This document shows, piece after piece, positions 4,944-51,413 of a DNA stretch of 57,763 nt. The position numbers and the translations under genes are program-made. Location of the stretch: assembly GCA_052035095.1 (NCBI GenBank), contig JBPOHW010000014.1:1-57763 (forward strand). Direction: 5' to 3'. How positions within the stretch are numbered: the stretch's first letter is position 1; each line of letters starts with the position of its first letter. The notes beneath the pieces were generated by a model. It saw only the letters and a list, made by a program, of their open reading frames with translations, was not told the origin of the DNA and made no database searches. Origin of the DNA: Candidatus Moraniibacteriota bacterium. GTDB lineage: Bacteria; Patescibacteriota; Minisyncoccia; Moranbacterales; UBA1568.

Positions 4944-5087
4944 TAGGACTTTCTCGCTTTGATGCAGTTTGAGGAAAAACCGAGTACCGAAATGAGGTGT
5001 ATACCATAATACTCCGAATGAGGAACGGAGGTTTTGACGAAGACCAGCCTACCGGCAGGCAGGAATGCGCAAAGTGAGGAAGTCCTA
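4944..5087 (+). repeat. ~130-nt structured repeat family A, copy 1 (carries a 20-bp palindrome insertion at 5044-5063)
   Basis: 18-bp terminal stem TAGGAC...GTCCTA and conserved core TTTGAGGA...GACGAAGA-AATGCG. Confidence 0.85.
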
Positions 5088-10009: not shown

Positions 10010-10034
10010 AAGCGATTGAGAATGCTTAACGATT

Positions 10035-10163
10035 TAGGACTTACGCGTTTGAGTGCAGTTCGAGGAAAATGCGAGGAACGGAGTAAGCTGTATGCGCCAT
10101 ACAGTGTCCCCGCCGAAGCGGGGGAGCATTTGACGAAGAAATGCGCCAAACGCGTAAGTCCTA
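10035..10163 (+). repeat. Repeat family A, copy 2
   Basis: Perfect 17-bp terminal stem TAGGACTTACGCGTTTG/CAAACGCGTAAGTCCTA plus the conserved core. Confidence 0.9.
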
Positions 10164-10189
10164 CGATTGATTTTTATATTTTTGCCGGA

Positions 10190-12539: not shown

Positions 12540-12669
12540 GAGGACTCGTGATTTTGAGTGCAGTTTGAGGAAGATACGAGGAGCAGAGTAAGCTGTATGT
12601 AAACATACAGCGTCCCCGCCGAGGCGGGGGAGTATCTGACGAAGAAATGCGCCAAAATCACGAGTCCTA
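12540..12669 (+). repeat. Repeat family A, copy 3
   Basis: Perfect 16-bp stem AGGACTCGTGATTTTG/CAAAATCACGAGTCCT. It overlaps the pilB stop codon. Confidence 0.9.
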
Positions 12670-51010: not shown

Positions 51011-51405
51011 GGGGTTGTCTAGATTCGACAGGATGCACTTTGAAAATACGCAAGCCGATTATGAGGGTGATATCGCAAATCTTTCCCTCGCGATGATACC
51101 TGCAAACTTCATCACAAAGGCAAAGCAAGCCTTCGCTTCGGCGTTCCAGCCTGCTTTCGCTTCCGCTCTCGCCTAATTTAGGCAAGCGCCATCGGACTCC
51201 CGACTCCCGATAGGGAATGTTCCGGTGTCATACTCTCGGGAAGGCGCGTTTCTTTCGCCCTCTGAAGAAACGATCGCTCTTGCACAGAGGACATGTTGAA
51301 CCGTTTTCGTGCGCTTTTATCGATCAACGTACTCCAAGCACACTACGCTTGTAGAATATTTTCGGAAATCATCACTGGACATGGGTGCAATTCCCATCAA
51401 CTCCA
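51011..51405 (+). ncRNA. ssrA: tmRNA
   Basis: GGGGUUG/CAACUCC-A acceptor stem with G3.U70, GAUUCGAC D-loop region, T-arm, and an internal tag ORF at 51102-51176. Lies next to smpB. Confidence 0.95.
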
Positions 51406-51413
51406 CAGAGCAG

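Follow-up and report, generated by a model that had tools for sequence, protein, structure and literature searches.

The analysed window, a stretch of 57,763 nucleotides from a Candidatus Moraniibacteriota contig (JBPOHW010000014.1), carries four copies of a small non-coding repeat, Family A, in intergenic spacers. The first-pass annotation had located them at positions 4944, 10035, 12540 and 31186, and all four were confirmed, with lengths of 123-144 nt and the same + strand orientation. The window genes that flank the copies are all encoded by the - strand, in the order 132-aa gene then L25, rpsF then ssb, pilB then pilC, and atpB then the next gene, and about 25 nt are left in the window between the element and the next start. 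A covariance model built from the four copies detected only those four within the window (111-132 bits), the next match scoring 20 bits. The features are the following, P1 to P5 being the helices of the fold described below and TIR the terminal inverted repeat.

4944-5087, + strand: putative MITE copy 1, 144 nt; covariance model 111 bits; -57 kcal/mol, z -7.1; flanked by an unnamed 132-aa gene and the L25 (TL5) gene (genes named by Pfam) and antisense to both
4944-4961, + strand: left TIR of copy 1, equivalent to the P1 5' arm, TAGGACTTTCTCGCTTTG; partner arm at 5070-5087
5044-5063, + strand: 20-nt hairpin insert of copy 1, CCAGCCTACCGGCAGGCAGG, in the P2 3' strand, seen in the alignment
10035-10163, + strand: putative MITE copy 2, 129 nt, rpsF/ssb spacer; covariance model 128 bits
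10030-10034 and 10164-10168: target-site duplication CGATT of copy 2, read directly from the sequence
10108-10124, + strand: G+C-rich hairpin of copy 2, CCCCGCCGAAGCGGGGG, which stands in for the usual GAGYACC strand of P5
12540-12669, + strand: putative MITE copy 3, 130 nt, pilB/pilC spacer; covariance model 132 bits
31186-31308, + strand: putative MITE copy 4, 123 nt, 1 nt from the atpB stop; covariance model 131 bits

Of the 18 pairs between the arms of copy 1, two are G.U on the + strand, and the outer 8 nt of the arm correspond to the IS701-type TIR consensus. The terminal CTA of this copy (5085-5087) doubles as the TAG stop of the upstream gene, and the terminal CTA of copy 3 is likewise the TAG stop of pilB. 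Compared with the 110-copy family alignment, the window copies are atypical in length because they carry extra hairpins: the 20-nt insert position of copy 1 is shared only with locus L027 among the 110 copies, and the P5 hairpin variant of copy 2, also found in copy 3 at 12614-12629, is restricted to these two. The ends of copy 4 have diverged (CACGGCTT...AAGCCGTG) with pairing intact, and no promoter-like or terminator-like site was found near this copy. In relatives, locus L093 has a copy at the site of copy 3 in which P1 and P3 are different yet paired, and L117 has a copy at the same site as copy 4 (31186). The window also contains a tmRNA gene at 51011-51408 (+ strand; RF00023, 98 bits).

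Fold and conserved core

On the + strand each of the four window copies folds into an unbranched rod (z -7 to -11 versus shuffled sequences), with folding energies of -56 to -68 kcal/mol on the + strand versus -40 to -59 kcal/mol on the - strand. An RNAalifold consensus of the four copies comprised 42 pairs, 18 of them with double changes. A species-representative genome collection was scanned with two core patterns, the matches were confirmed by the covariance model and up to 8 loci were sampled per assembly. This search across genomes, which had been suggested by the first-pass annotation, revealed more than 110 further copies in about 40 species-level CPR (Patescibacteria) genomes, and 110 full copies from 100 sources were aligned.

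In this alignment, 103 of the 110 copies are 120-126 nt long. From its base, the rod consists of P1, P2, an internal loop, P3, an internal loop, P5, an internal loop and the P4 hairpin. P1 has 17 bp and is followed by a single bulged purine, whereas P2 has 9 bp, with a wobble U20.G106 kept in 97 of the 110 copies and a central G24.A102 that is changed to A.G in 12 copies. P3 (6 bp) covaries freely, and P5 (GGARC/GYACC) includes an A.A mismatch. The loops between P2 and P3 (CGAGG/ACGAAG), between P3 and P5 (GA/NNA) and between P5 and P4 (GGAGUAA/GUC-GA) are nearly invariant. The apical loop of the P4 hairpin is variable and seldom GNRA or UNCG, with no enrichment in stable RNA tetraloops in the family alignment.

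The covariation of the inner helices and the fixed loop bases, both pointed out from the four copies in the first-pass annotation, were borne out on those copies and on the 110. Paired cells amounted to 93.7% in the 110 copies, versus 72% in shuffles and 28-43% when the partners were slid, and double-change cells to 978 versus 265. The pairs with the highest mutual information were all inside the rod, and no pseudoknot or tertiary covariation was found by mutual information over the family alignment. Mean identity among the copies is about 65%, with conservation concentrated in the unpaired loops: 20 positions, nearly all unpaired purines, are 96-100% conserved, compared with about 50% for helix positions. 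The loops are near-invariant although the housekeeping proteins of the host genomes are only 35-65% identical.

A conserved single-strand structure favouring the + strand had also been proposed, and it agrees both with the folding energies and with the ratio of G.U to A.C pairs, which is about 3.5:1 overall, 108:31 in the antisense copies and 18:5 in the sense copies. This preference for the + strand is thus present also in copies antisense to their operon. The wobble bias is taken here as real selection on the + strand fold, because in most copies, the antisense ones, a bias in the other direction would be expected from local GC skew. The interior of the element, about 90 nt, folds on one strand only, and the + strand RNA displays four GGAG/GAGG motifs.

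The same rod recurs in a second MITE architecture of 178 nt with two hairpins, in which the same inverted repeats close a Y-shaped fold made up of the rod and a second, unrelated hairpin (-97 kcal/mol, z -11.5). Examples are the following.

L317, 3927-4104: 178-nt variant
L268, 6678-6855: 178-nt variant
L270, L271, L311, L322 and L302: further loci with the variant

In L317, rpsM-rpsK is flanked by two 178-nt copies. In a single case (L262) the rod has a closing stem unrelated to the transposon ends.

The Rfam scan, another check put forward at the outset, yielded no family match for the element either at gathering or at permissive thresholds. With Rfam 15, the tmRNA was the only match of the whole window at the gathering threshold, and two copies of the element searched at E values up to 10 gave only chance matches, the best being Pistol with 13 bits (cut-off 34.5). 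Readings of the loops as hairpin ribozyme, K-turn or sarcin-ricin motifs were compared by eye and none fits.

Terminal repeats, movement and hosts

The P1 consensus is TAGGACTTACGCRTTTG, and its 17-bp arms are 88% Watson-Crick paired over the 110 copies. This sequence is the TIR of a 1.07-kb insertion sequence of the IS701 family (NCBIfam NF049921) that is present in other CPR genomes and in one archaeon. The same arms bound 1,068-1,455 bp in five loci, four of them near 1.07 kb (1,068-1,086 bp). In L321 and L337, the two loci scored with NF049921 'IS701 family transposase' (cut-off 250 bits), a single ORF of 322-342 aa reached 369-386 bits and matched Pfam DDE_Tnp_1, and the ORFs of L300 and L369 are of similar length. 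The TIRs of L300, from a Parcubacteria MAG, and of L321 are identical in 17 of 17 positions to both arms of copy 10035, and the intact element in L337 is flanked by a 5-bp duplication, TATAA. Similarity between the MITE and the intact insertion sequences is confined to the 17-bp ends; the core is absent from the latter, and the MITE interior is a separate module, not derived from the parent by deletion.

The family therefore displays TIRs, a fixed 5-bp duplication, a small, non-coding and dispersed body that is present or absent in relatives, and an autonomous partner (L300, L321, L337, L369). Since P1 is the TIR of an IS701-type insertion sequence and the family has these traits, Family A is classed by its sequence as a MITE family, with P1 as the putative pair of transposase-binding ends. 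The terminal stems had been described as differing almost entirely between the window copies while staying paired. The pairing stands, with compensation in the middle 5-7 bp, which vary; three of the four copies, however, have 6-8 bp at the outer end (TAGGACT.) and 4 bp at the inner end (TTTG) in common. Much of the P1 'covariation' is what any transposon end pair shows, because one transposase requires the same sequence at both ends and the two arms consequently match each other; more generally, matched transposon ends can mimic RNA covariation in motif searches. However, P1 is still perfectly paired in old copies with wholly diverged ends (L050, L027, L116 and window 31186), which independent decay of two transposase-binding sites does not predict.

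The exact consensus arm was used as a scan pattern, and the matches were then checked for the inverse 17-mer. In cyanobacteria, Poribacteria, Methanosarcinales, Planctomycetes, Chloroflexi and many CPR lineages, exact TAGGACTTACGCRTTTG delimits MITE-like elements whose interiors are unrelated. Loci L259-L337 include short elements bounded by the 17-bp end TAGGACTTACGCATTTG whose interiors are quite different (for example L280, Moorena; L264 and L316, Poribacteria; L326, Methanosarcinaceae; L267, Planctomycetales), the cyanobacterial copies having in common a C-rich/G-rich hairpin interior. As far as sequence can tell, the TAGGACTTACGCATTTG ends point to a very widespread MITE superfamily that one small IS701 subgroup may serve.

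The analysis of the flanks revealed identical 5-mers in 6 of 109 copies, versus 0.27 expected, and a match of at least 4 of 5 bases in 17, versus 3 expected, with no enrichment of direct repeats of other lengths, including 4 bp, at the element flanks. Nearly all of the duplication-bearing copies have consensus ends, TAGGAC(T/G)TAC...GTA(A/C)GTCCTA. A TA target duplication was considered and rejected: the duplication is 5 bp, and the 'TA ends' read as a signature in the first-pass annotation are part of the 17-bp TIR.

Filled and empty orthologous sites, a comparison also proposed there, were found. Copy 10035 is missing from the rpsF-ssb spacer in at least 79 of 80 ssb loci of related Moranbacteria, some of them with an SSB 80-85% identical; only one of the loci carries a copy anywhere within 1.5 kb. 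Removal of the element and one repeat leaves a spacer of 46 nt, and the spacers of relatives measure 18-66 nt; judged from these comparisons, copy 10035 is a recent insertion. Conversely, two sites that are empty in the window, after pilC and after a pilin-region gene, are occupied in the relative XM1_ASGE3bin.7. The closed 1.05-Mb Moraniibacteriota chromosome CP064994.1 (L181), with an SSB 80% identical to that of the window, has no element within 1.5 kb of ssb and gave no match in three pattern scans, and it could serve as a natural element-free comparison genome.

In sludge metagenomes the summed depth of the family was 100-400x versus 5-7x for unique flanks, and read alignments to other copies stop precisely at the ends of P1. 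In the region 10024-10185 of the window, summed contig depth over the element was 20-60x that of the single-copy flanks in runs X11, X13, X18 and X20 (activated sludge, digester), which indicates that the family is very abundant in the community as a whole. The empty-site joint of copy 10035 was not found in four sludge runs. Decay was also observed, in a half-degraded copy (L092) in mismatches of a close syntenic pair (L056/L029) and in a copy whose P4 has other hairpin repeats nested inside it. In L128 (1221-1472, - strand) the P4 hairpin of the element is interrupted by about 150 nt in which another hairpin repeat, AGAAGT(C/T)C(G/A)ACTTCC...GGAAGT..., occurs twice; this insert by its sequence is a nested insertion of another small element family. 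The view of Family A as an undescribed mobile structured element was thus sustained as regards mobility, by the 5-bp duplications, the filled and empty sites and the copy number in sludge, and has to be amended as regards its kind, which is the known one of an IS701 MITE.

As sampled, the structured family is confined to CPR, that is, to Moran-, Uhr- and Roizmanbacteria and other Parcubacteria, and no copies of the element were found in IMG/VR, plasmids or phages. A spread of the core across phyla was rejected because the labels 'Gammaproteobacteria', 'Bdellovibrionales' and 'Micavibrio' belong to mislabelled Patescibacteria MAGs. Flanking proteins from these hosts are up to 77-98% identical to proteins of Patescibacteria/Moraniibacteriota MAGs, G+C content is 41% at the 'Micavibrio' loci, and MAGs labelled 'Bdellovibrionales' turn up repeatedly among the ssb loci most closely related to that of the Moranbacteria-like window. 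The TPA MAGs concerned (CAZIQG, CAYRYX, CAYOIM, CAYLJX, DYDB and others) are titled 'uncultured Gammaproteobacteria', 'Bdellovibrionales' or 'Micavibrio sp.', and these titles appear to be mis-assigned.

Position and orientation of the copies

In 58 of the 110 copies the distance between the 3' end of the element and the stop codon of an ORF on the other strand is 0-9 nt; in 15 of the 110 the terminal CTA itself is the stop, and 40 more are located 1-9 nt beyond a stop. Targeting of TAG stop codons was considered and rejected, because TAG is offered by both ends, many copies lie 1-9 nt beyond the stop and there is no flank motif. Since both ends offer TAG and no conserved flanking motif exists, the stop-adjacent placement probably reflects the survival of those insertions that spared the ribosome-binding site in tiny spacers. 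No promoter, terminator or target motif was found in the flanks, no sigma-70-like promoter upstream of the four window copies and no conserved upstream motif across the family. Low-depth, undirected Logan RNA-seq contigs, which carry no strand information, gave no sign of an abundant small RNA.

All four window copies are antisense to the operons in which they sit, as had been stated before; across the family this is a strong bias and not a rule. Crude ORF calls gave 49 copies antisense to both neighbours and 12 sense to both, and on inspection about 7 of the 12 sense cases are real, which brings the antisense to sense ratio nearer to 7:1. The real sense copies precede murF-, ftsA-, ddl-, efp- and rpsU-like genes by 2-30 nt. 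The neighbours that recur across loci are only housekeeping genes (EF-P, EF-G, SSB, S6), with no enrichment in nucleases or transposases among neighbouring genes. GC skew in the orientation of the element is negative in 81 of 107 copies, and copies that share one contig are nearly always on the same strand. Gene direction and GC skew flip together at every locus, so that transcription and replication polarity are confounded.

A few copies lie upstream of stable RNA genes. Two of them abut the first base of tRNA-Leu.

L116, 3248-3456, - strand: sense copy linked to tRNA-Leu
L100, 3608-3816, + strand: sense copy linked to tRNA-Leu

Both loci share a promoter-like TTGTCA-N17-TAACCT upstream of the element, and the sequence suggests that here the element would be the 5' leader of the tRNA, from which RNase P would release it.

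Interpretation and comparison with known systems

The reading preferred here, with a probability of roughly 0.8, is that Family A consists of IS701-type MITEs mobilised in trans, in which P1 represents the inverted repeats and insertion generates the 5-bp duplication. On the evidence of the sequences, a transposase from a 1.07-kb ISPlag1-like element binds in trans the two 17-bp ends, and the 124-bp unit is inserted into A+T-rich DNA with formation of the 5-bp target duplication; such mobilisation probably also takes place in the window's own organism. In these compact genomes the copies that survive occupy short spacers between genes, usually 0-9 nt beyond a stop, a placement for which selection is the probable cause. 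DDE transposases of this type are not known to require a folded interior, and it is therefore inferred that selection maintains the rod, acting between lineages of the element and to some extent on copies already in place. The explanation preferred here is that the + strand RNA would be an active module, either bound by a protein, processed or cut, or attracting ribosomes. If so, sense insertions inside operons would be counter-selected and most survivors would be antisense, which would explain the rarity of sense insertions inside operons, and lineages with a compact fold closed end to end would persist and spread. It seems best to regard the conserved rod as a cargo on which selection acts. 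A further step, considered here as a tentative possibility, is that the 90-nt rod is an undescribed class of structured RNA, or less likely of single-stranded DNA, with a function of its own, which travels as cargo of IS701-type MITEs and has been adopted by the host in some copies. In that case it might be a protein-binding platform, a processing signal or a ribozyme, and the copies 5' of tRNA-Leu and in a 16S rRNA leader would be examples of host adoption.

The element could also be primarily a functional RNA, such as a self-cleaving ribozyme or a protein-binding RNA, whose copies are kept by the host and for which the transposon ends are a vehicle or a coincidence. The purine-rich loops that do not vary, the covarying helices, the conserved U.G wobble and the G.A/A.G swap form a pattern typical of functional RNAs, the sense copy directly 5' of an identical tRNA-Leu in two genomes has every helix re-compensated, and a further sense copy is located about 150 nt upstream of 16S rRNA, in its leader. 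The rod is found in another MITE architecture as well, and once (L262) with a closing stem other than a TIR. Nevertheless, most copies are antisense to the operon, without a promoter-like site or a conserved flank, the P4 loops are variable and seldom GNRA or UNCG, mutual information gave neither pseudoknot nor tertiary covariation, and the Rfam ribozyme models did not match even at E values up to 10. The record of in-situ compensatory evolution is mixed. The syntenic pair L071/L160 is 88% identical, with four compensated double changes in P1 and no mismatch, whereas other pairs decay (L056/L029, in addition to the decayed L092) or resemble independent insertions, several being no more alike than random copies, and by a rough estimate the number of syntenic pairs is about that expected from chance re-use of a limited set of tolerated sites. 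On balance, a primarily functional RNA is unlikely.

Two other roles have been weighed, and both are less likely than an IS701-type MITE with an active + strand RNA. The fold might act as single-stranded DNA. It would then be recognised at the replication fork, or by an enzyme specific for single-strand structures, and its orientation relative to replication would be set in this way; REPIN/RAYT elements, IS200/IS605 ends and integron attC sites are likewise read as folded single strands. In favour of this role, the + strand is preferred whichever way the flanking genes run, copies on one contig nearly always have a common strand, and GC skew is negative in 81 of 107 copies. It is nonetheless very improbable: HUH-type single-strand transposition produces no target duplication, whereas the fixed 5-bp duplication and DDE-type inverted repeats indicate double-strand cut-and-paste; in most copies GC skew identifies the folding strand as the leading-strand template, and not as the fork-exposed strand; and gene direction and skew are confounded at every locus. 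Least probable of all is a role of the copies as host cis-elements in the operon mRNA (- strand), where REP/ERIC-like hairpins would block 3' exonucleases or uncouple translation. Their position 0-9 nt after the stop in 58 of the 110 copies and, in the window, about 25 nt before the next start would suit such a role, and the - strand too folds as a long hairpin (-40 to -59 kcal/mol); the wobble counts, however, favour the opposite strand by 3.5:1, in the mRNA the conserved U.G would turn into an A.C mismatch and the conserved loops would be rich in pyrimidines, and 79 of 80 relatives lack the rpsF-ssb copy.

Classed as an IS701-type MITE, the repeat that occupies spacers within conserved operons (rpsF-ssb, pilB-pilC, atp) in many ultra-small CPR gains a name and a mechanism for annotation, together with a link to a transposase family with ends found in organisms as different as cyanobacteria and methanogens. 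Its cargo implies either that selection for harmlessness in compact genomes shapes it or that a functional RNA module rides a MITE. The kind of element (MITE) and the parent family (IS701/ISPlag1) are already known; a literature search found no paper on MITEs in CPR genomes and no description of this element family, nor of its end sequence outside ISPlag1.

Among known repeats, REP/REPIN sequences resemble the element in being intergenic palindromic repeats that form hairpins, often at gene ends and with an orientation bias. REPs are 20-40 nt long, bear a GTAG/CGTC tag and are mobilised by HUH (RAYT) proteins with no target duplication, and this system is excluded by the 5-bp duplication and the ends of DDE elements. 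In integron attC sites, R''/R' core sites (RYYYAAC...GTTRRRY) bound cassettes next to an integrase; they are excluded because the ends of the element are TAGGAC...GTCCTA and its neighbours are housekeeping operons.

The closest relatives of the ends are the small IS701 elements of the ISPlag1/ISMhu9 type. ISPlag1 of Planktothrix, which belongs to the IS701 group and is related to ISMhu9, has the TIR CAGGACTTACGCA... (PMC2464740), and the corresponding sequence of the element, TAGGACTTACGCR..., has 12 of 13 bases the same. The IS701 TIR consensus ---YACT-Y--YR (PMC2266710) is matched by the element at A5, C6, T7, Y12 and R13. Target duplications are 4 bp long in most IS701 members and about 5 bp in 'emerging families' (PMC2266710); a short fixed duplication is thus found in the small IS701 elements too, being 5 bp in the MITE. 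Unlike ISPlag1-type insertion sequences, the window elements have no transposase gene, and their interior is the folded rod and not a remnant of the insertion sequence.

The likeness to ERIC and RUP that had been noted at first was right in kind. ERIC, RUP and Correia/NEMIS are non-coding elements of 100-170 bp with TIRs, located between operon genes and forming long stem-loops (PMC3184786), and are therefore the same kind of hairpin-forming bacterial MITE. They are, however, conserved in sequence within one genus or family, whereas the element described here is found in at least 40 species of several CPR classes, and its target duplication is 5 bp, and not TA. Especially close in kind, when compared by description only, is bcr1 of the Bacillus cereus group, for which the review names no parent insertion sequence (PMC3184786). 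It is about 155 bp long, non-coding and dispersed, with strain-variable positions and 5-bp direct repeats, and it is transcribed, with compensatory base changes that preserve the fold at the RNA level (PMC3184786). Both the 5-bp repeats and the compensatory changes are shared with the element, but bcr1 folds into a cruciform with two stem-loops, whereas the element forms a single rod, and the host phylum is different.
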